Of a stretch of DNA of 64,000 bases, positions 24,170 to 61,400 are shown one piece after another. Source of the stretch: Ginglymostoma cirratum (lineage: Eukaryota); contig JAHRHZ010000098.1 of the NCBI GenBank assembly GCA_024137785.1, forward strand, positions 24,048,498 to 24,112,497, written 5' to 3'. A program made the position numbers and the translations under genes. The notes under the pieces were generated by a model. It was given only the letters and a program-made list of their open reading frames with translations, was not told where the DNA came from and did no database searches. Each line of letters begins with the position of its first letter. The first letter of the stretch is position 1.

Positions 24170-24735
24170 TCAGCAAGTACAATCATAAGAGAATCAGGAC
24201 ATTCTGCCCATTGAGTGCACTCCATCTTTCAATGAGGTCATGACTGGCAACCCTCAACTCTACTTTTCTGCTTCATCCCCACAACCCTTGATTCTGAACC
24301 TGAACCTTGAATGTATTTGATGACCAAATATCAACAGCTCCCTGTGGTAAAGAAGTCCACATATTCACCACCCTGGATAAGTAAAAAAAACCCTCCACAT
24401 CTCTGCCTTAAACGATTGACTCCTTATGCTGAGATTATGTCCTCTGGTCCTAGAGTCTCCAATAAAGGAGGAACAGTAGTACACACCTAAAATAATATAA
24501 AACAAAAAAACTCTGGATGTTGGAAGTCCAAAACAAAAATCAGAAATTAATGGAGATATTCAGCATCTGTGGGGAGAAAGCAGAGTTAACATTCTGAAGA
24601 AGGGTCACTGGACTTGAAACATTAACTCTGTTTTCTCTCCACAAATGTTGCCAGACATTCCACATCTGCCCTGTCAAACTCCCTGAAGCTCTTAAATTTC
24701 AATAAAGTCTCCTCTCATTCTGCTAAACTCCAACT
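24170..24735 (-). mobile_element. CR1 3' fragment containing a fold-back PLE-derived insert (~24495-24657)
   Basis: Minus strand reads RTRGHNLSIR. The insert has inverted arms around CTGAAGA-A-GGGTC-ACTG-GACTT-GAAAC. Confidence 0.7.
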
Positions 24736-31330: not shown

Positions 31331-31711
31331 TAGCAAGAGCTATTCAGAAGCTGTAGTGTTTTGCCAAAAGCAGAAAAGCTGGATGCATATCAATACACTC
31401 TTCTGTTTCCACCAGTAATAGTTGTTACGTATCTGTACTGCAAGTATTCAGGCAGATTGCTCACAAGTAATGTTAGATTTAACATTCCTTAGAGACAATA
31501 TCATCGTAAGGTCTGCTGGGGAATAAATTAGCTGTTACAGAATTTGGAGTTTATGCTGGAGTTAATTTCTCAGATGAAATCCTTTTGCAACACCTCACCC
31601 ACCTTAAAAATATGTACCAAACAGAATTTTGTATTTTTAAACAAAAAGCCCTGAAATTGAAGTATGTTTTAAAAGATCTCAGAAAAGATACTGGACAATA
31701 GTAAAACCAAC

Positions 31712-32363
31712 ATAACAAGGTGTGGAGCTGGATAAACACAGCAGGCCAAGCAGCAACATAGGAGCAGGAAAGCTTGACATTTCGGGCCTAGACCCTTCAT
31801 CAGAAATGAAGGGTCTAGGNNNNNNNNNNNNNNNNNNNNNNNNNNNNNNNNNNNNNNNNNNNNNNNNNNNNNNNNNNNNNNNNNNNNNNNNNNNNNNNNN
31901 NNNNNNNNNNNNNNNNNNNNNNNNNNNNNNNNNNNNNNNNNNNNNNNNNNNNNNNNNNNNNNNNNNNNNNNNNNNNNNNNNNNNNNNNNNNNNNNNNNNN
32001 NNNNNNNNNNNNNNNNNNNNNNNNNNNNNNNNNNNNNNNNNNNNNNNNNNNNNNNNNNNNNNNNNNNNNNNNNNNNNNNNNNNNNNNNNNNNNNNNNNNN
32101 NNNNNNNNNNNNNNNNNNNNNNNNNNNNNNNNNNNNNNNNNNNNNNNNNNNNNNNNNNNNNNNNNNNNNNNNNNNNNNNNNNNNNNNNNNNNNNNNNNNN
32201 NNNNNNNNNNNNNNNNNNNTTCCCCTCCCCCATTTCTGATGAAGGGTCTAGGCCCGAAATCTCAAGCTTTCCTGCTCCTATGATGCTGCTTGGCCTGCTG
32301 TGTTCATCTAGCTCCACACCTTGTTATCTCGGATTCTTCAGCATCTGCAGTACCTATTACCTC
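31712..32363. mobile_element. PLE insertion with inverted termini spanning an assembly gap, 15-bp TSD
   Basis: TAGTAAAACCAACAT at 31699-31713 and 32364-32378. The arms are reverse complements and each carries CTGATGAAGGGTCTAGGCCCGAAA. Confidence 0.9.
31820..32219. other. Assembly gap (400 N)
   Basis: Run of N. Confidence 1.
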
Positions 32364-40670: not shown

Positions 40671-41573
40671 CACGCAATGGTTGTATTAACACAACATTTA
40701 AAACTTTCCACAACACCATAGTTTCTGTATATACTTTAAAATTTGTTTTTTGCATTTAGTTTTGTAAATACAAGATGGAATCTTATAGGGATCTGAGTGA
40801 CGTGGCCCACGGCTAGAAGTTTGACAGAATCAGGCAATAAGTTCAACGAGGGCCAGCTCAACATTGAGATCATCTTGTTCACTTTTGTCAATCGGCGACG
40901 TGAGATTCTCACCAGACAGTGGGCATGATTACAATTGATGCGAGCTACTGATTTTTAAACGTTGTGTTAATGCCACAACTCACCTCATTAATAACAGACT
41001 CCCACCTTACCAAACAAGTTAGACATTAAGAAAACTTGACAAGGAAGCAAATGTATGCATTCATCTCCAAATTGGGCACCAGCCAACAATTTCTCAGAGC
41101 ATGAGCTGAATGCACTCTTCCTCCATGGTTATTGCAATCGGTCATCTGCCATCCCACCATCTCAATCCTGGCACACCTACTTTGCATTGGCAGTGTGCAC
41201 TTGGACATTGTAGGGCATACCAAGCAGTGGCATTGAAAGAATGTAGCAGGGACGATTGTGCACAGGGAGAGGCATCCAGCTTGCAGACTAGACTAGGCTT
41301 GCATACTCTCTTAGTGTTCACTCATTTAGCACATACCTGCTTGCTCATAGCACCCCTGCCTTGAGTAATCTTGCCTTGCCAGTTGATGCCATCACAGAAA
41401 CTGGCAGGGAAGCATCCCCTTAGACTAATGGGTACACATTTTGCTCTATGGCAGCTTGCTTTCTGCACAGACCTCCATCCATTACAGTGTCTGGGTAGCC
41501 ATGAGCAGCTGCTGTTGAGCACCTGCACAGGGAGAGTCAGAATGAATTGAATGAAAGTTAAAGTCATTGACAT

Positions 41574-41798
41574 CTATGCACACTGTTCTACACTGTCTAT
41601 GCAGACTGTTCTACACTGTCTATGCACACTGTTCTACACTGGCTATACAGACTGTTCTACACTGTCTATGCACACTGTTCTACACTGTCTATGCAGACTG
41701 TTCTACACTGTCTATGCACACTGTTCTACACTGTCTATGCGGACTGTTCTACACTGTCTATGCACACTGTTCTACACTGTCTATGCAGACTGTTCTAC
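41574..41798. repeat. 23-bp minisatellite, ~10 units, forming a 46-bp higher-order repeat
   Basis: CTATGCA[C/G]ACTGTTCTACACTGT every 23 bp from 41574 to 41781, with strict C/G alternation. Confidence 0.95.
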
Positions 41799-43974: not shown

Positions 43975-45460
43975 TAATATTTTTCTAGCATTTTGTCCAG
44001 AGTCAGGAAATATTTCAGTGAAGTTTTTTTTAATTGGAGGACCACGGACCTAATTTCAGTTTTAATGCAGTCTCAGCACTGACCATGTGTGCTAAGTCTT
44101 TGTCATTTGCCAGCAGTTCATGTCAGTTTTGATATCTGTAAGGCGTCTTAAGTTGAGCAACGACACATTGACAGCTCATTGCACACTTCATTCCTTGAGT
44201 AAAGAAAAGTGACAACCTCAGGCATTAGATCTAGAAATCTTTGCAGGTCCTTCTCTCCACTTATCTACCTCACAGCTGTGTGAAAGATTAGTTCACCATA
44301 GGCAGCATTGAGTTTGTCCAGCAAGGATTCAACAAAACAGTGCTGAAGGGCTCTTGGAGACACTAAAGGCTGCAGATGCTGGAAGCCAGAGGCAATAGAC
44401 ATGAAGCTTGAAAAGCACAGCAGGTCAGACAGCATCCGAGGAAAAGGAAAATCAACATTTTGGGCCGAAACAGCTCTGACAAAGGGTTTTGGCCCGAAAC
44501 GTTGACTTTCCTCCTCATCAGTTGCTGTCTGACCTGCTATGCTTTTCCAGCATCACATCTATTGATCCTGAAGGGCTCTTATTTGAATTAAGTTTACAAT
44601 CTTCTCATTACATAAGAAAAGTGCAGACTTTTACTCGCTAATGTTTGCTGGTGGATTATACAGTGGCAATTGTCAAAAGAGAGAAAAATCAGGATTGTAT
44701 CTGTAAAATGCATCAAAGGCCATACCTTTACCAAGCATGGTTGGGGAACTACCAGTTATGATGGAACTTAGCTTCTTGATTGGAATGTTTTTCTTAAGCA
44801 AGTGCCTTTTGTATTCACAGCAGAGATCCTCACCCCTTGTTCTTTCGAAAGGACAAAAGGGTGAGAAGAACCTCTTTGGATTTTATATCCTCAAAAACTG
44901 CAAAAATTAATCAGCTGGCTTTTTCGGTGACAATGATGAACTCAAATTTCAGTGAGAAGCTTTCCCAGTTCTTCAGATCCTGCTGTGGTTACTGAAAGAT
45001 ATCTTCAAACAAAGATTCAACACGTCTTGCTTCTGTGGAAGTACCAAGTGACATGTTTTAGTTTGCTGTTATCATTTCTTTTTTGTTTGTAAAGTCTTTC
45101 ATTAAAGTGCCAATGGCCACGGTTGTTGCTTCTTTAATAAATTTACCATTCGCGAATGATTCCTTGAATTTTGTCAGAAGATGGTAAATGTGAAATAACA
45201 TTTCGGTGCAGGCCTGACCTTTTGCTGCTGTTTAGAAACAAATGATTGCTGAGTTTTCAAAATGGCCTTCATCAACTTCCTTTGTCTGAAGCAGACAATT
45301 CAAGAGAAAACTATCCTTGAAATTCCTGTGCATCATTGTGTTCCAAATTCTGCTGTTAACTTAGCGATATAATTTGGTGACAAACAAGGCAAATGCTTTT
45401 AGCTTTTATAGTTATGAGCAGAAACTCATTTCCCCGTTCCACGTGGAAGGTTTTTTTAGG
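43975..45460 (-). pseudogene. Decayed hAT transposase (SPIN/GTF2IRD2/EPM2AIP1-like)
   Basis: FHVERGNEFLLITIKAKSICLVCHQ; FANGKFIKE; HCIIHQQTL; YGELIFHTAVR*ISGEKDLQRF (resembling VRWLSRG). Multiple stops and frameshifts. Confidence 0.85.
44356..44567. mobile_element. Fold-back PLE-derived element inside the hAT gene, 13-bp TSD
   Basis: CTGAAGGGCTCTT at 44343-44355 and 44568-44580. Inverted arms of ~80 bp, with CTGACAAAGGGTTTTGGCCCGAAACGTTG near the centre. Confidence 0.9.
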
Positions 45461-50950: not shown

Positions 50951-52782
50951 CAAAACACAAAGAGACAAGGTAGAGATGGTATGAGCATCTAAGTAGGCAC
51001 AAATTGCATGAGAGCTAAGAAAGCAAATGAAAAGCCTTGAGGCAATCTCTATGCATAGAGCATACACTGAGATGTTTGGGATTGCCTTCATGACAGGAGC
51101 TGTAGCTACCTAGCTTCTCTCTAGTGCACTGGAGAATAGAAAGTTGAACATAAATTAGGCAAAATATTTATGCAAGCAAAAAGCCTCTCACTATTGCAAA
51201 TCTCTACGCACCCTTCAAGACTTGGGTGGAAAATTGGACATCTTTCCCCAACGTCAACAACCTAATTTTTCCAAATACACAACATTTAACTGCAATGATT
51301 CAAAAAGGCAGCTCCATCACCTTCTGAATTGTAGTCAGGTTTGGGAAACAAAACCTGGCTTACATAGCAACTCCCAAATCCCGTGAATGAATAAAAAAAA
51401 GCACTTTCATTTCTGTCTAACCTACAGTGCACCTAAACTGGTAATGCCAGATGTTGACATGATAGTGACCAAAATATATTTCTCTGGCTCTGACATTTCC
51501 CAAGATCAGTATGATAAATGAAAATACAATGATTCAAAGGATGAAAGATCACATCAATGTCCTTCGGCTGAAGACAGTTTCATGGAGACAACTTAGACTG
51601 GACAGTGACCTTTCATCTGGAATTTGGATTCAAATTAAATTGGGTAAAATTGATGGAGGTGTCAACTGCAATGCTCTATAAATGAGCATGTGACTATTAT
51701 ACATTCAAACCTGAGTTCTTGTCAGGAGCTGTTAAAACATTTCGGATGAATGGCATATAGGACCCTCTTGTCAGTCAGTAAGTGAACCACATGGGATCTT
51801 GGTGATGAATTAAAAACTGGATTTCCCTGTTGCCTATTGATCCTGTGCTGTTGTCACTCACTGTCACACCTACCTTCAACATAAATATGAAAGAAATGGT
51901 TTTGAAAAATAAGCTTAAGACAGAGAGTTGACAGGTGGCTCTTATTAAATGTGTTATGTTTTCTTACAATGATACAAAAGCTGTCACCAGAGTCCACAGG
52001 AGACATATGGCTGTAATTCATTGCTGCACAATGAAGGAAGCCTGAGTATTAGTCGTTATCTTTCTTGTGAGAGAGAATTGCCAGAAAAAAGTCATAAACT
52101 TACAAAAGTTAATGGTACCAGACTACTAGAACTGAGATTTCCCTGCCAGAGAGATTATTTGATTATTCTATAGAACAAGAATAACGCAGGAAAAGAGACT
52201 GATAGAGAAACAGGTAACAAGGATAGAGAGAGACAAGAAACATAGCTCAATGGAAGCTAAACTTTCCAATTAGCTCAGTGTGACTGGAACACATGGACTG
52301 CATTATGTGAACCTTTCAGAAATGTCAAGCCTTATTAAGACTTGTTCAATAATTGTCTGAAGTTCCCAATCAAGTGACTCAGGTATGCTGAGTGCCTCTG
52401 ACAAGTTGAACAACTTGGACCTAGTGCCTTTGTGCTTTATAAAATGGAATCATTATTATTGAACAGGATAACTTCTTTTGCGCGACTTTTTTTTTCAAAC
52501 TGTGACCATTTATCACAAAGTCTCCATGATTTAAGGCAATATTTTCCAGCTTAGGCCACAGTCAAAAATAAAGACTCTGGAAAGATGTATTCTTTAGATG
52601 TCTCCGCCCTTTGAGAAGATGAAACACGATTTGAAAAATTTTTCATCACAAAATATGTCAGACACACACATACACCACAACATAAGACATACAGCTTTTC
52701 ATTCTTCCTTGCCCTTTAAACCTTATTAAACAATCTTTCAGCATTAATTAAACCTGAACTTATTTCATCACTTTACCATCTG

Positions 52783-53465
52783 TGCAGTGATCGTAACAAG
52801 TTCAACTAGGTGTACCTCGTAGAATATATGAGTTCCACGATTGGGGCTGTTAATTTGGTCCAATCAGGGAGACAGACAGGAACAGGAGTATCAGACATCC
52901 TGTTTGCTCTGAGAGCTGGATCAGTGTCAAGGATTCCCTACATGTAAAATAAAGGGTGATTTGGTGATGGAATACTGGTCTCTGTGGAGTTATTTCAGTG
53001 GCAATGAGAGAAAAAGCATGCTCCTGAAGAACTCATAGCAGTTGTCTGAGTTGTGGTCAGCATTTCTGGTCTCATGCTGTTACTTGGGAAGTTTGACTTC
53101 TTCAATACTGCCATCAAAGACTGGGCCCAGTATGTGGAAAGAGTGCGTTAATTTTTCTGAGCCAACAACATTCAGTCAGATGAAAAGCAATGAGTAATTC
53201 TACTGACAGCTTGTAGACCTGCAGCTTTTTCACTTATTAGGAGCCAAATGCTCCCTGCAGTACCAGCCAATAAAACCTTTCAAGAATTGACAGATTTAGT
53301 TAAGTAATAGTATAAACCACAAGACTCCCCTAATTCTAAGGTGCAACTGTTGTTACTTGACAATTCAAGAACCAGAGGAATCCATACTGGAACTTTTGAG
53401 CAAACTAAGATGACTGACAGGGGCGTATAACTTGGATTTAACCCTTAATGAGATGCTGAGAGACC
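52783..53465 (+). mobile_element. Gypsy (K02A2.6-like) element, 5' part: LTR 52783-52997, primer-binding site and gag N-terminus
   Basis: TG...CA LTR similar to the reverse complement of 56396-56625, followed by TGGCAATGAG. gag reads MLLLGKFDFF..DWAQYVERV..FQELTDLV..LNEMLRD. Confidence 0.85.
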
Positions 53466-53535
53466 TGCTGAGCTTTTCCAGCAAATTTGTTTTTGTTCCT
53501 GATTTACAACATCCGCAGTTCTTTTGGTTTTTATA
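53461..53535 (+). mobile_element. PLE-derived arm at the left inversion breakpoint
   Basis: AGACCTGCTGAGCTTTTCCAGCAAATTTGTTTTTGTTCC plus the terminal tail. Confidence 0.85.
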
Positions 53536-53932
53536 GAAGCAATGAAGTCTTGTTCCAACTTTACAAAACATTGGTTAAGCCACCAATGGGCACAAAGGAG
53601 ATTCATCAGGATGTTGCCTAGAATGGGAAATCTTAGTTACAAGGAGAGACAGAAGACTGGGTTTGTTTTCCCTGGAGCAGAGGAGGGGATCTGAGGAAAT
53701 ATCTTTTTCATCCAGGACGGTGGTAGAAACATGGAATGTGCTGCCAGAGAGGGTGGCGGAGGCAGGTACTCTCCTAACATTTAAACAGCATCTGGGTGAG
53801 CACTTAAAATGCCAGGTCATATCCTAAATGGACCAAGTGCAGGTAAATGGGATTAGTGTAGTTTGGTTTTTGTTGGTCAGCATAGACATGGTGGGCTGAA
53901 GGCTGTATGTGCTGTATGACCCTATAACTCAT
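53536..53932 (+). mobile_element. CR1 3' part (continuation of 60356-61400)
   Basis: Reads SNEVLFQLYKTLVKP...FIRMLPRM, ending in a 3'UTR and CTATGA-like tail. Confidence 0.8.
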
Positions 53933-54589
53933 CTAAATGCTGCCCCTCAGCAGCAGCATCTAAAAATAAACGACAGGCTCTAAGTAGTCACTGATGACAT
54001 TCAACTTTATAAGGAAACTTAGACTCAATGTAATTGTCAGAAGAATTATATGGAATTTGGGTGGAAACGTTTCACCCAGAGGGTGGCAACAGTCTGGAAC
54101 TTAATGAATGAAGAGATGATAAAGACAGGCCCCTCATCACATTAAAGAAATACTGTGGTATTTTCCAGATGACCACTGCTGGCAGTATGTGGTATTTGTT
54201 AAAGATTGGTTAATGTAGTTCTCTACCACTAATCGTCCTGTGTCTTTATTTGTCTTGGTCCTGTCTAATGATTAGTGGCAGAGATGTATAACCATGCAGA
54301 GTATCTACAGAAGAGATGCTGCTCTTTGATAACAGGAAGATTTATTACACATTAGCAATATGTCCAACATTTGTTCAGACATAATCCCTGGGATTTTGGA
54401 GTTGGTACAAATACATCTGGTCCCTCTGAAAGCTAGACAAGAACTATTTGTATCCCCCAGAGTGGGAGAGACATCGGTTGAATGGTTGAAGGTAATATAC
54501 CATGAACATTAACCCCTTTAGGGCCATTACCTTATGCAATACAAACCCACTTGAAGTTCCATAACCTACAGAGCTGTGGAGTGAAAGGT

Positions 54590-56394
54590 TGCAGATACTA
54601 TTTTTCCAGTGACTGAGGTGACTAGAGCAGTGGCAAAGCCAAATCTGTCATGGGAAACCAAAACACCACCACCAGGTTCAAATTTTGATTGCAATGTTCA
54701 GGAAGCAGAGGTTTTGCCCAATGTACAGGAGAATGAGGAAGTGCAAGTAACTTTGATGCAATTAAATGAGTGTAGTAACAGAGAAAATACTTCCAGTATT
54801 CACAGTAACATTTTGTGCAAATCTTTCATGTTCTGCGCTCCGAAAATGACAACATTGCCCAGGGAAGGAAACATTAAGGATAACCAAGCAACCCTTGTAC
54901 AACTAAAAGAATGCGGAATGGTTGTTGAGTTTTCTGCTACAATTTCTCCTTTAAAGTCCTTCATGGATCTGTCAAACTATGGTCAGGAAGTATTAGTATT
55001 TCTCAGTGTTTGACAAACTTTGGAGTGGGAAAATTCCCTGCTGACTCAGATGATGAGCAGAACCTACATTCAGAGAGGAAGTAAGAAGTGCATTGAAAGT
55101 GAAGCACAGGAAATTAAATTTCAATAGAATCAGCAAACTTGGGTCAGGATCCCACAGCAACTGAGATTCAAATTCCTCACACTGATTATTGTCAATCAAG
55201 TCAGTAAAAGAGATGTTTTNNNNNNNNNNNNNNNNNNNNNNNNNNNNNNNNNNNNNNNNNNNNNNNNNNNNNNNNNNNNNNNNNNNNNNNNNNNNNNNNN
55301 NNNNNNNNNNNNNNNNNNNNNNNNNNNNNNNNNNNNNNNNNNNNNNNNNNNNNNNNNNNNNNNNNNNNNNNNNNNNNNNNNNNNNNNNNNNNNNNNNNNN
55401 NNNNNNNNNNNNNNNNNNNNNNNNNNNNNNNNNNNNNNNNNNNNNNNNNNNNNNNNNNNNNNNNNNNNNNNNNNNNNNNNNNNNNNNNNNNNNNNNNNNN
55501 NNNNNNNNNNNNNNNNNNNNNNNNNNNNNNNNNNNNNNNNNNNNNNNNNNNNNNNNNNNNNNNNNNNNNNNNNNNNNNNNNNNNNNNNNNNNNNNNNNNN
55601 NNNNNNNNNNNNNNNNNNNATCTCAGATTCTCCAGCATCTGCAGTTTCTACTATCTCTGAAACAAGTTTAAGTTAGATTGCTTCAAAAACAAATGGACAT
55701 ATGCAGTTCAGAACAGTTGAAAAATAAAGCCTCGAAAAATGAATTTTCAGTTTGAAGTAATGGTTCAAGGTAGTAGATTTTCCAGGGAAATACAGTTGGT
55801 TAACACAAAAACCTACCAGCCTATTGAAGAAATCAGGTTTCTATTCCAACCCAAGGATGTAGACATCAGTCAAGTAACTGATAAAGGAAGCAACTGCAGT
55901 TAGAACAAGGGAATCAGACCTGAAAGCAAATGCAGAGAATAATATTTTCTGTTCATATCTTGAAGATGACTTTGTTGCAACAAAAAGGAAAAAAAAATGC
56001 TAAAGTATTTATTTGAGTTTGAATTGCAGGAAGATCTCAAACACCAATCTAAAAGCATTTGTCTGGGACCCAGATAACTCAATACAGTTTTAGACACTGA
56101 CCACAGAGGAATTATCTGTGGAGCCAGATGAAGTTAATTTTTCTTCTGTTTCAGTTGAAGGCTTGAATCCAAACACTAAGTGCTGTTATCCCAGATTAAT
56201 GTTATTTTATTTGGATTAAAAAGACTGGGCACCAAACAGATAGAATTTTATGTTCATGAGAGAAACTTTGTTGAAAAGTTTAAAATTGCAAAACTCAAGA
56301 CTATACCAATGGTGCCAACTGGTTAAATTCTCAAATATAAAGATTGTTCACATTGTTGGTAAAGATAATGTGATTACAGATGCCTTGTCCAGAT
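54590..56394 (+). mobile_element. Decayed Gmr1-like LTR element pol remnants
   Basis: IFPVTEVTRAVAK (post-protease motif) at ~54600, and RNase H end NIKIVHIVGKDNVITDALSR at 56334-56393. Confidence 0.55.
55220..55619. other. Assembly gap (400 N), with a PLE tail on its right edge
   Basis: Run of N followed by ATCTCAGATTCTCCAGCATCTGCAG. Confidence 1.
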
Positions 56395-56395
56395 A

Positions 56396-59300
56396 GAATA
56401 CTGACCTCTGCAGTTATTTCAGTCATCATATCACTCTTCATGTACACATGGAGAGTCCTTGGCACTGATCTAACTCCCTTAAAGCCATCTCAGAGTGACA
56501 AGATCTCAGACACTCCTGTTCCTATCTGTCAACTCGGGCTCCCTGACTGGGCCACATTAACAGCCATAATCAGGGAGCTCACTTTCTAGGAGATCCACCT
56601 GGCTGACCTTGTCAAAGCCACAACATCCCATCCCTTGGAGTCTGAGGACACAGGCTGTTTCCCCAACTCCCATCTCCTCCTGGGGCTTTTTAAGTCACTG
56701 GGTCAGGTTCCTTTGACTCTGCCTCTGATACAGGTGGTATGTAATGCATAGCAGCTCACCTCTTGCACCTGGAGCAACTGGGAAGAAATCCATTCTCTTC
56801 TATAGGCAGCAAAGGCATTGATGTGGTGACATCCACTGTATCCATCTCAGATTCAGATGTCTCTTCAACTCTTGATGGACAGGGAGAACCCCTGTGTTCC
56901 AGGACAGTTGGAAAGGCTGTCGAGGAGCAAAGCATGTATCACTCTTGCACCATATATGAATTTGCAGCTTTCATGTGGTTCACGTGCTTGTTCAGAACTG
57001 TCGTACCTACCTGAACTTTATACGTTACTGGACCTGACCTCACATCAACCATGCCTCTTACCCACGTAGGGCGATTCCTGTGCTTCCAACACCAAAATTT
57101 GTCCCCTGCAGTAAACTGTCTCACTCAGTAGAGTCCTGTGTCCAGCACTTATGTTCCTGATGCCATTTTCACCCTCACCCCAAACCCGGGAACATCAGAG
57201 TTAACCTGGTACGGTGCCTTCTCCCCATTAGCAACTCTGCTGCAGCTATCCCCATAGTTGCAAGAGGAATGGTCCTATAATCAAACAGGAACCAGGACAG
57301 TTTGGTATCTACTCAAGCTGAAGGCTGTTTCTTCAAGCCTACCTTCAAAGATTGAACTGCTCTTTCTGCCAAACCATTAGATGGTGGATGGTACGGAGTT
57401 GTCCTTAATGTCAAATACCATTCGACTCTCGGAAATACTCAAACTCCCAGCTGGTAAACAATGGTCCGTTATCTGTGACCAACCCTTCTGGGAGAGCCCA
57501 TGTATTGCGAAAGATGTGTGCAGCTTTTCTACTGCTGTCATTGTTTTAAACGAATGAACTCTATGCATGTCCAGCCACTTTTAGTGGATATCCACAATCA
57601 CTAGGAACATTGAGCCCATGAAAGGACTAGCACAGTTGTCATGTAACCGAGTCCAGGGTTTACCTGGCCATTCCTACAAATATGGGGGAGATACTGGTGG
57701 TAATTTTTGTCCTTGGTGGCACTCTGGGCACTGCCCCACAACTGCAGCTCTGTCTGCATCCAATCCTGGCCACCAGACATAACTTTTCACCAACATCTTC
57801 ATTTTGGAAACCCCTGGTGGAGTTCAGCCAGTATCTAGTAGCAACTTTTTAATGGGAAGAATTATTCTTGCTCCCCATAATATGCCATCCTCTGATATGA
57901 CCTGGTGTCTCTGGGTCCATAAAAGTTACAATCTGGTTGTGATGTACCTATGATTTCACCACCGCCCCCACCCCCACCCCCACCCCAACCCCCACGATCA
58001 GCCGTTTCAGTTTTGACAGGATGGGATTTTTCCCCAATCCAAATTCTGATACTGTCAACTGTGACTGGAAGGGTGTCCAGACAACTGGACACCACTATGG
58101 ACCCTTCCAATGGCAGTACCACCAGTGGTGTATCTGCCAGTGGGAGGCAGCTCAATGCATCCGCATTTTCTACCTGGCCGCCCAGACGGTGGTCCAACTT
58201 ATAATTGTACGTACTTCTTATTAGAGCCCACTGCTGAATTCAACCTGAAACTATGGCCGTACTGCCTTGTCCTTTAAGTACACCTAGCAGGGGTTTGTGG
58301 GCTGCTACAATTAGAAATTAACATCTGTAAAGCTATTGGTGGAACTTCCCAACTCCAAGTATGACCACTCAACCTTCCTTCTCCACCTGGGAGTACTTAT
58401 GCTCTGCATTAACCAAAGTCCTGGATGCATACTCTATTGTTCCTCTCCATTGGGCCACGTATGAGCTAATACTACTCCAATGCAGTACAGGGAGACATTG
58501 CACGTCAATACCAGATCTCACTTGGGACCAAAGTCTGCCAACACCTTTGAGGATGACAGCGGTTTCTTTACTTCCTTGAAAGCTGACAGTGTTTGATGCA
58601 AAGGTGCCAGATTTTGTATGAAATTTTCATAATAATTCACCGACTCAAGGACAGACCTGATCTCTGGAGCAAAGGTACCTTGGATCACCCTTACTTTATC
58701 TTCCGGTAATCCAGTCTGGTTGACTCTGTAGCCCAAGTAGGTCACTTGAGTTGCCTGGAGCACATATTTTCCCCTTCTAAGGCATCTACCCACCTGGGAG
58801 ATACATTGAAGGATTATATCCAAACTCTCCAAGTGCTCTTTAATGATCTTCCCTGTTGTTAGCACATCCAGATAAATGGCAACCTGGCCTAGACCTCAAA
58901 ATGTTCTCCACTATCTGCTGGAAAAGGGCACAGGCTGATGGTACCCAATGTGGCAGTCTTGTGTTTTGGCACAAACCCTTATGGGTATTAATTGTGGCAT
59001 ACTTCTGGTACTCCTCATCTAGTCATAATTGCAGAACAGGTGGCTCATGTCCAGCTTTGTGAAGAACAGGCCCCTGCCAGTTTTACAAGTACTCTATGCG
59101 AGGGATTGAGTATTTATCCAGCTGCGAGAAGTGGTTTACCATTTGCCTTAAGTCTCTACAAAGGCAAACCGACCCATTGGGCTTCATGATTGGTACAACC
59201 AATGCTGCCCATTTCACAAACTGCACTGGTTTGATGATTCCTTCACTTTCCAGCCTCCTGATTTCTGCCTCTACTTTTGCCCGTAAGGCCAATGGCAGTG

Positions 59301-60251
59301 GCCGGGCCTTGCAGAATTGTGTTTTTGTTTCCTAGTAACATGCAAGGTGGCCTTGGCTTCTTTGATAATCTCTAGGCCTTCCTGAAAAAATGTCTGGGTA
59401 TTTAATTAGGACTTCACTCAGGCGGCCATTTTCTAATCAAAGAAATGATCAGCCAATCTAGGTGAGTCTTTGTCAACCAATTTCATTTCATCAAGCGTGA
59501 GCCCAAGCCTTTTACTACAATCAGTGGGAACTGAACCAGCTCCTTCCCGTAAGAGTCTGGAACTGAAGTTGCACCTGTAATCTGCAAAGGTTCCCCAGTA
59601 TAGGTGCTCAGCCTAGCCAAGGTCATGTGCAAACTTAAGGATTGGAGTCCAGAGAGAATTTTGCTAAAGACTGGTTCTGCAATCACTGAATTGGCTGAAC
59701 TAGTTTCAGCCTCCATTAGAACCAGGTGACCATTTAACCAGACATTTACTTTGTTTGGTTCTGATTTGGATGTTGCTAAGCTATTTAGTTGTTCCAACTC
59801 ACATGTAGGTGGACTTTACAGGTGGCGCACTCTCCTGGATACCGGCCTACGAGTTCTCTTATTCAATTTAGGTCTAGTGGGACTCCTTTGCTGTCTCAAG
59901 TCTATATACTAGCAGGAACTACAGTGGTTTGCTGGCCCAGATCCTAAAGAAAATTTTAACCGTTTGGCCGAGTCTTGGCTTTGTTTTGGGGTTTTGCTGT
60001 GTGCTGACCTAGAGTCCCTCTGTTCAGGATATATCCTGAGTGTAGCTATGCCATCACCTTCACTTAAGTGGTTTTCCCCAACCACAGCCAGCCTGGCTAG
60101 GGTTTTGAGTTTCATCAGAATACCCAGCAACTCATATGCTCCACTTGAAGCATTTTCCACTGATAATGTCAGTTGTACTACTTGTTTGAAGTCCAGTTGG
60201 GCTTCAGCTGGTAGGCACTTTTGCATGGTTACATCATTAATCCCACACACT
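56396..60251 (-). mobile_element. Gypsy element, 3' part: gag C-terminus, PR, RT, RH, IN, polypurine tract and 3' LTR (decayed)
   Basis: VCGINDVTMQK; LNGHLVLMEAETSS; KVEAEIRRLESEGIIKPV..WAALVVP; TYLGYRV; ENADALSCLP; YWWPGLD; VRSGPVTYKV. The tract AAGGGATGGGA is followed by the LTR 56625-56396. Confidence 0.92.
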
Positions 60252-60355
60252 CAGAATTGAGGAAGGGTCACTGGACCCAAAACGTTAACTCTGTTTTCTC
60301 CTCCACAGATGCTGCCAGACCTGCTGAACTTTCCCAGTAAATTTGTTTTTGTTCC
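60252..60355 (+). mobile_element. PLE-derived arm with degenerate hammerhead at the right inversion breakpoint
   Basis: TTGAGGAAGGGTCACTGGACCCAAAACGTTAAC...AGATGCTGCCAGACCTGCTGAAC. Confidence 0.85.
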
Positions 60356-61400
60356 TTGCTTCGAGATGCTATACCTTGGCTAATGAAGGCAAGCATCCTG
60401 TATGCCTTCTTCACAACCCTGTATACCTGTGCAGACACCTTTTTATGGATCTTTGGACCTGTACACCAAGGTCCCCTTGTTTCTCAGTGTACCAGTCACT
60501 GTTTATGTCCTTTCCTCATTACACCTCCCAAAATGCATCCCTTTCCACTTATCAGAATTAAATTTCATTTGCAATTGCTGTGCCCAATTTACCAGCTGAT
60601 CAATAGCAGACTGTAGCCTCAGACCATCCTCCTCATTATCAACATTGCCAATTTTCATGTCATCTGAAAACTCACTAATTATACATTCACATGCAAGTCG
60701 TTAATGCACGTAATAAATAGCAAGGTACCTGGCACTAATCCTTGTAGTACACTGCTGGTCACAGTTTTCCAATCACGAAAATAACCATCCTACATTTCTC
60801 TTTGCCTCCTGTGTGCAAATTATTTGAATCCAGTTGGCCAACTTGCCTCTGATTTCATGAACTCTTACCATTTGGACCTTCCATGTGGGACCTTGTCAAA
60901 GGCCTTACTGATATCCATGTAAAACACATCAACTGTATTACTCTCATCAATATATTTAGTCACCTTTTCAAAAACTCAAACTCCCTCCAACAAATCCATG
61001 CTGACTATCTCTGACCAATCCTTGCCTTACCAAATGTTGGCTAATCCTGACCCTCAGATTTTTTTCCAATAGTTTTCCTATCACTGAAGTCAGGCAAACT
61101 GATTTGTATTTAGTTAGCTATCCCTGCTGCCCTCCTTGAACAAAGGACCCACATTAGCTATCCTCCAGTCATGTCACTTAATCTGTGGCTAACAAAGGAC
61201 TTAATGTCCCACTCAGAGCTCGAGCAATCTCCTCTCTTGTCTCCCACAGCAGCCTGGGATCTATCTCCTGAGGGCCTGGGCATTTAGTCACCTTTATGCC
61301 CACCAAAAAATCTAATAACTCCTCTTTATTAATCTTAAAATGCTTTAGAACCTCATTTTCCTAAGTGAATTTTCCAGCGACAATCCTTTTCTCATTCACT
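60356..61400 (-). mobile_element. CR1 RT region (5' part of a split element)
   Basis: Minus strand reads YMDISKAFDKVPH, FSDDMKIG and VVKKAYRMLAFISQGIASRS. Confidence 0.85.

Follow-up and report, generated by a model that had tools for sequence, protein, structure and literature searches.

Reciprocal breaks in a Gypsy and a CR1 copy

The window analysed here is a stretch of 64,000 nucleotides (nt) of the Ginglymostoma cirratum genome (assembly GCA_024137785.1, contig JAHRHZ010000098.1, positions 24,048,498 to 24,112,497 of the forward strand), in which an old Gypsy-type retrotransposon and a long interspersed nuclear element (LINE), the latter judged from its motifs to be of CR1 type, are each broken in two. 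The segment between the breaks (53536-60251 of the window) is inverted, and at each of its junctions stands one arm of what is likely to be a single insertion of a Penelope-like element (PLE). An earlier note, made from the letters of the window alone, had read this arrangement as an inversion induced by PLE retrotransposition. Each half of the two repeats was aligned on its own to other copies in the assembly (4.36 Gb, 289 contigs), and PLE arms were surveyed locally in the 864-kb stretch around the window.

In 14 other genomic copies of the Gypsy element the sequence of the left half (forward strand, to 53465) is followed by that of the right half (reverse strand, from 60251), with an implied gap between the halves of 4 nt in 11 copies, 2 nt in two and 6 nt in one, and in 12 longer copies both halves are collinear as far as each copy extends. 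The split of gag at 53465/60250 with a loss of about 4 nt, claimed by the earlier note, is thereby borne out. The left part (52783-53465) is 71-77% identical to other copies, and its 5' long terminal repeat (LTR) starts at 52783, matching them. The LTR pair of the window copy is identical at 133 of 168 positions (79%). A 3' LTR could be detected in 6 of 12 copies, with LTR-pair identities of 79-83%, and two of these six have exact 5-bp target-site duplications. The inverted 5-bp duplication proposed for the window copy (ATCTG at 52778-52782, CAGAT at 56390-56394) also stood, its 5' side being fixed by the LTR start and the pair being exact once a 27-nt micro-inversion of the 3' LTR tip is allowed for. 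These last 27 nt (56395-56421) are separately micro-inverted, a change that is probably old and shared with an organism about 95% identical, a contig of which runs through them over 214 nt without a gap and with 10 differing letters, against 19 mismatches expected otherwise. Pfam matches of the Gypsy 3' part to reverse transcriptase (RT) and RNase H were weak and below cutoff, as was that of the CR1 open reading frame 2 (ORF2) part to RVT_1 (E=4.6e-4), and 10 of the 13 window fragments had no Pfam match. Two other Gypsy copies hold internal pieces in reverse orientation (L260, 4553-5283; L261, 5311-5519).

The upstream part of the CR1 copy (reverse strand) ends at 60356 and continues at 53536 (forward strand); of 14 other copies, 12 place the overlap of the two parts at exactly 7 nt, and two gave spurious alignments. 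The ORF2 split and its inverted duplication, GAAGCAA at 53536-53542 and the reverse complement at 60356-60362, thus hold at the coordinates first proposed. With the bases common to the arm ends the duplication grows to 9 of 11 or 12 of 15 nt, within the 9-17 nt range of target-site duplications of intact PLE copies. Taken alone, this duplication is weak evidence, 5 of 394 random arm pairs scoring as high. Compared with other copies, the 3' part of the CR1 copy shows internal deletions at two points, near 53590 and 53685 (within 53589-53686).

Such reciprocal breakage of two old repeats that are unrelated to each other strongly supports an inversion, and the segment 53536-60251 is confirmed as truly inverted in the assembly. 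Its size of 6.8 kb is nominal, because the second of two 400-N gaps in the window (31820-32219 and 55220-55619) falls within it; a wrong gap length could alter the size of the inversion, not its junctions.

Penelope-like arms at the two junctions

The arms themselves are non-coding, and longer copies of their family run upstream into a GIY-YIG frame (locus L058; Pfam E=0.0044, below the curated cutoff; first Atlas match a GIY-YIG/HTH_animal cluster, 0.97). This frame, together with the tail and with inverted copies like those described in the available part of PMC8557442, supports the identification of the arms as probable 3' ends of an endonuclease-positive (EN+) PLE. A CxxxxCxxC pattern was seen by eye ahead of the endonuclease in L058 and L102; a zinc-finger-like linker before GIY-YIG is a feature of the Neptune clade according to the same source, again as far as its available part goes.

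The 864-kb stretch contains 182 arm matches and 40 head-to-head pairs, from which seven with a long gap or of mixed family were removed. Among the 33 same-family fold-backs left (about 33 per 0.84 Mb), 31 pair one tailed with one tail-less arm, which matches the two RT start sites and the cleavage and extension of both strands seen in vitro (PMC11167929) and suggests that in a single reaction each target end uses one of the two start sites. At least two related families of PLE 3' ends are present (including window positions 31704-32357, 44365-44564 and 24495-24656). The intact insertions at 31704-32357 and 44365-44564, brought forward by the earlier note for comparison, do show the asymmetry, but both match a sister family better, and the first holds an N gap. 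Assembly gaps often lie at fold-back arms (window 31820-32219 and 55220-55619; L082, L085, L087, L092, L206), and palindromes are therefore probably under-counted in the assembly.

The tailed arm of the window (tail at 53500-53534) is 99% and the tail-less arm 96% identical to the best copies. A hammerhead had been assigned to the tail-less arm; its minimal core motif is visible by eye, but Rfam reported none in the window, the core departs from that of family copy L095 at two positions, and only stem II folds (z -0.59). This hammerhead copy is, judged by its letters, probably inactive.

The arms are identical at 36 of 39 positions in their overlap (15 intact pairs range from 75 to 100%), and the variant AAATTTG occurs in only 2 of 37 arms of the 864 kb, both of them the window arms. 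One arm is tailed and the other tail-less; they share a strand and are placed exactly at the breakpoints, each with its 3' end on the inverted duplication. That both come from one PLE-derived insertion, as first suggested, is likely on statistical rather than direct grounds: asymmetry, shared variant, inverted duplication and a remnant of the fold-back centre (described below) combine to make one insertion very likely.

At the left junction the letters 53451-53465 are gag's own, being the same in other Gypsy copies, and they match the element at 13 of 15 positions, the last five perfectly. Sites with at least 13 of 15 matches and five perfect terminal bases to any part of the element's 3' end occur at 2.2-2.8 per 10 kb, counting both strands together (232 sites in 815,689 unmasked bases, or 181 once collapsed). 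Since a random break would fall within a few bases of such a site in well under 1% of cases, homology appears to have chosen the gag site, and the microhomology put forward earlier is too rare to be incidental. The tailed complementary DNA (cDNA) shares a strand with the gag match and is complementary to it, and the gag/element DNA duplex has a predicted energy of -14.5 kcal/mol.

Table 1. Features at and around the inversion (window coordinates)
Feature	Position	Strand	Remark
Gypsy 5-bp target-site duplication, left copy (ATCTG)	52778..52782	+	LTR start fixed by other copies
Old Gypsy-type element, not inverted: 5' LTR (52783-52997) and start of decayed gag	52783..53465	+	71-77% identical to other copies
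Gag stretch matching the element 13/15 (left-junction microhomology)	53451..53465	+	Gag-derived according to other Gypsy copies
Tailed PLE arm, 5'-truncated at the microhomology	53461..53534	+	
Inverted segment: CR1 3' part (53536 to ~53931, +), unique DNA, N gap, Gypsy 3' part (-)	53536..60251		Reciprocal junctions
Inverted target-site duplication in CR1, left copy	53536..53542	+	Up to 53532-53546 with arm-shared bases
N assembly gap	55220..55619		400 N, inside the inverted segment, beside a sister-family element's tail
Gypsy target-site duplication, right copy (CAGAT on +)	56390..56394	-	
Gypsy 3' part: rest of gag, decayed pol, 3' LTR (56395-56625)	56395..60251	-	Collinear with other copies
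Fold-back centre remnant CTCAGAA	60250..60256	+	5-7 nt of centre kept
Tail-less arm with minimal hammerhead motif (about 60257-60288)	60257..60355	+	
Inverted target-site duplication in CR1, right copy	60356..60362	-	Up to 60352-60366
CR1-type LINE ORF2, upstream part, not inverted	60356..60900	-	Runs on beyond 60900

Elsewhere in the window, a low-complexity tandem repeat occupies 41573-41798.

Timing and route of the inversion

Judged from divergence, the Gypsy and CR1 copies (70-82% identical to relatives) would have come first and the arms (96-99%) later, with the inversion at or after the insertion of the arms. We lean, with limited confidence, towards a PLE fold-back insertion that flipped 53536-60251 during its own integration, by one-ended hairpin repair. 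The element's endonuclease would cut the old CR1 copy in staggered fashion, and cDNA would be primed from both 3' ends, at the tailed start site from one and at the tail-less start site from the other (a step suggested by the duplication and by PMC11167929). The two cDNA 3' ends would then start pairing at the element's 5' end, the tail-less end copying 5-7 nt of the other. The 5' strand of the left end would be resected over about 6.8 kb, and the tailed cDNA would anneal to the 13/15 match in gag, giving a large hairpin, the loop of which would be nicked just past the match; the gag 3' end would then copy the arm, the CR1 3' part and the loop in reverse. The loss of 4 nt at gag is observed, the nick being what would lead to it. 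Finally, the new end would be joined to the tail-less arm through the 2 nt of homology observed at the right junction. One break would suffice for this course, a second independent break being unneeded.

Purified PLE protein cuts and extends both strands, starting at two sites that bound the tail, and later steps of PLE integration are without experimental validation (PMC11167929). For L1, local inversions are reported with 14 bp of homology at one junction, none at the other and the duplication split across them, and are modelled by resection of an end, annealing of the 3' overhang to a short homology, cutting and copying of the hairpin, and end joining (bioRxiv 2024.12.14.628481, available in part); a single twin-primed L1 can make both bridges of a balanced rearrangement (bioRxiv 2024.08.27.596794, likewise available in part). 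Of the features by which retrotransposition-mediated inversion is defined for L1, a split inverted duplication and, on statistical grounds, both bridges from one event are found at the present locus; as to the third, a rearrangement simultaneous with integration, the centre remnant fits this timing and a later one. Because real homology exists at one junction only (13/15 versus 2 nt), one-ended hairpin remodelling fits better than two ends both seeking gag. Perfect and near-perfect fold-backs persist in numbers in the genome, and later breakage is thus not overwhelming.

At the right junction, where homology is 2 nt only, gag is followed by CTCAGAA (60250-60256, the first 2 nt common with gag), which corresponds to the 5' end of the element in reverse complement and differs from the element's natural upstream sequence (L095, L100, L102, L109). 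This junction motif has 19 other exact genomic matches, 18 of them intact fold-back centres and one a single arm with a direct duplication. The tail-less end had therefore already copied from, or been sealed to, the tailed end, and since the ends had met at the centre, the palindrome may have broken later. The earlier proposal that free cDNA ends joined a site at a distance accordingly stands for the microhomology join at gag, but not for two ends that had never met, given 5-7 nt of the centre; similarly, the inversion and the single insertion hold, and the remnant fits an inversion either at insertion or after it.

The second of these timings implies two steps: a sealed fold-back palindrome (arms of about 100-135 nt, very short spacer) would later have broken or stalled a fork, and the left end would have reached the gag match either through resection with self-annealing or through a double template switch, with the remnant as leftover centre at the right-hand end. 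We regard this as a serious contender that falls short of an even chance. All the evidence for one insertion fits it equally well, the remnant is identical to intact centres (18 of the 19 matches), fold-backs with a shortened arm and no duplication exist (L195, L209, L218), and inverted repeats at close spacing are prone to breakage, with hairpin-capped breaks as the result (PMC7999016, available in part). It requires an extra break, however, and among the 40 pairs, inspected by eye, the least diverged fold-backs already show central truncations while some old ones are still complete palindromes. Moreover, repeated short templated snippets of the element's 5' end occur at many fold-back centres (L071, L097, L101, L103 and L110, around 1400-1520), which resemble products of polymerase-theta-type end joining; aborted joining rounds thus happen, be it at insertion or later, and they too can leave such remnants. 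Single-cDNA snap-back as the origin of all fold-backs was rejected as a general rule, since in 18 loci judged by eye the arm reaching the centre is the tailed one 11 times and the tail-less one 7 times. Four loci have an arm and a centre remnant of 7-12 nt with neither partner nor duplication within 300 nt (L193, L208, L212 and L215, around 1500) and no partner arm within 10 kb; these are possibly target-site deletions, a sister outcome of inversion.

Several observations weigh against an inversion in the course of integration. The remnant has the polarity of the partner's (the tailed arm's) cDNA end, which simple snap-back of the tail-less arm cannot make (the opposite polarity, as single-arm snap-back would give, has 572 matches), and it is most simply read as a centre that had already formed, in favour of the palindrome break; the pairing and copying of the two cDNA ends before hairpin formation is an added assumption that rests on this remnant. 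The commoner centre form has 300 exact genomic matches, 30 of which were inspected by eye: 17 run at least 28 nt into the partner arm, eight keep a remnant of 7-14 nt beside a deleted partner, four have a remnant without partner or duplication, and one abuts a gap. Partial or absent partner arms at such loci could be damage after insertion. The L1 models, by analogy with which the hairpin route is drawn, stem from cancers and cell lines and are given in preprints.

The case is also single. Further split arm pairs with inverted target-site duplications, for which the earlier note had proposed a search, did not turn up: none was found among 242 orphan arm pairs within 150 kb or within 30 kb on either side of 77 orphan arms in the 864 kb, a search that would miss larger inversions and translocations, nor within 10 kb on either side of 15 orphan loci, so that locally one reader-selected case stands beside 33 intact fold-backs. 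One AT-rich orphan pair among the 242 tied with the window pair in score. The top orphan pair (62663/166863) owed its score to overlap with the element's own tail; the eight matches of the 30-kb scan were the window pair (two), sequence inside elements (five) and an intact fold-back in AT-rich DNA (-309181/-319888); and L054, taken as an orphan, is an intact fold-back with arms about 570 nt apart. Reads gave as their best match the organism that is about 95% identical (70 other letters in 1,307 at 53875-55185), the listed contigs of which span both outer Gypsy borders and the unique interior; none of these contigs, and no read seen, bridges either junction. Opposite-strand joints of 53463-5 to 60247 were rejected as the orthologous locus, their summed depth of 60-560, versus about 10 for unique DNA, being read as other Gypsy copies.

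It is very improbable that two independent insertions lie at, or patch, the ends of an inversion made otherwise, or that older copies recombined. Arms are dense in the region, and a staggered break alone can give a 7-nt inverted duplication of the kind that random arm pairs reach at the rate given above. Against these readings, a tailed and a tail-less arm lie exactly at the breakpoints, with their 3' ends on the duplication, a rare variant in common and a centre remnant, and gag carries no second duplication. Inverted repeats are what recombination between copies would leave. The window arms are on the same strand, with one duplication and the element at only one of the ancestral sites, and instead of two long inverted homologous copies at both ends only the imperfect 15-nt gag match is found, in keeping with the earlier dismissal of recombination between older repeats. 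An assembly artefact at repeats or at the N gap is just as improbable: fold-backs do cause gaps, one of 400 N lies inside the segment and no listed contig of the relative bridges a junction, but both junctions fall in called sequence, no closer than 1.6 kb to the gap, and their reciprocity holds to 4 and 7 nt; no more than five exact bases are shared at the left join, too few to confuse an assembler, and an artefact would not produce the duplication, the arm asymmetry and the shared variant.

Known systems and implications

The inversion resembles L1 local inversions, as described in the available part of bioRxiv 10.1101/2024.12.14.628481, in that neighbouring DNA is inverted with the duplication split across the junctions, homology (about 14 bp there) is found at one junction with little or none at the other, a small deletion is present, and the size here falls in the range of resection that this source cites (mostly less than 10 kb). 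It differs in involving a Penelope-like GIY-YIG element with cDNA on both ends and homology between cDNA and genome, and in being found in a genome assembly (and presumably inherited) rather than in a tumour or an induced clone. Twin-primed L1 insertions likewise split one event over both junctions of a balanced rearrangement, a reciprocal translocation or an inversion in tumours; the L1 halves, however, share a breakpoint and engage pre-existing distant breaks, megabases away or between chromosomes (available part of bioRxiv 10.1101/2024.08.27.596794), whereas the arms here overlap in sequence and lie kilobases apart, the far site being apparently chosen by homology.

Among PLEs, an inverted 5'-truncated copy, a tail of 30-40 bp on one end, a hammerhead in the pseudo-LTR (pLTR) and a GIY-YIG domain at the C terminus are known (PMC8557442, available in part; PMC11167929), but arms separated by inverted host DNA, as here, are not described in these texts. 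In Drosophila virilis dysgenesis Penelope is tied to inversion breakpoints, there at cytological resolution and with breakpoints coinciding with parental insertion sites, which suggests pre-existing copies; a split insertion or inverted duplication is not described in the available part of that source (PMC3681739). Inverted Alu pairs share with the present fold-backs the closely spaced inverted repeat as a fragile site, yet the outcomes given in the available part of PMC7999016 are palindromic duplications, amplifications and deletions, not a clean kilobase-scale inversion. Elsewhere, most inversions and translocations in one study were attributed to Crypton and Replitron elements (PMC9977147), and an inversion linked to other retrotransposons has been described (PMC12910113; both sources available in part). 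The class of mechanism is thus already known for L1, and a base-level split PLE insertion or inversion was not found in the literature covered, outside of which lie supplements and most subscription papers, including the original D. virilis breakpoint studies.

Because two long-decayed repeats are scrambled, the locus has no visible functional consequence. The split insertion would represent a frozen intermediate, in which both target ends carry element DNA from two start sites and can separate in vivo, and would extend retrotransposition-linked inversion from L1 in tumours to another class of retroelements and, presumably, to the germline. It also provides a signature that can be counted genome-wide, namely tailed and tail-less arms on the same strand with an inverted duplication. 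A broader and rather unlikely conjecture is that PLE ends, tipped with cDNA after cutting of both strands, routinely search nearby resected DNA and so give rise to inherited inversions and deletions on the kilobase scale, with hundreds to thousands of split pairs genome-wide. Were this true, with some 170,000 fold-backs at uniform density, PLEs would be generating structural variation that has gone unrecognised, with a signature that is simple to search for.

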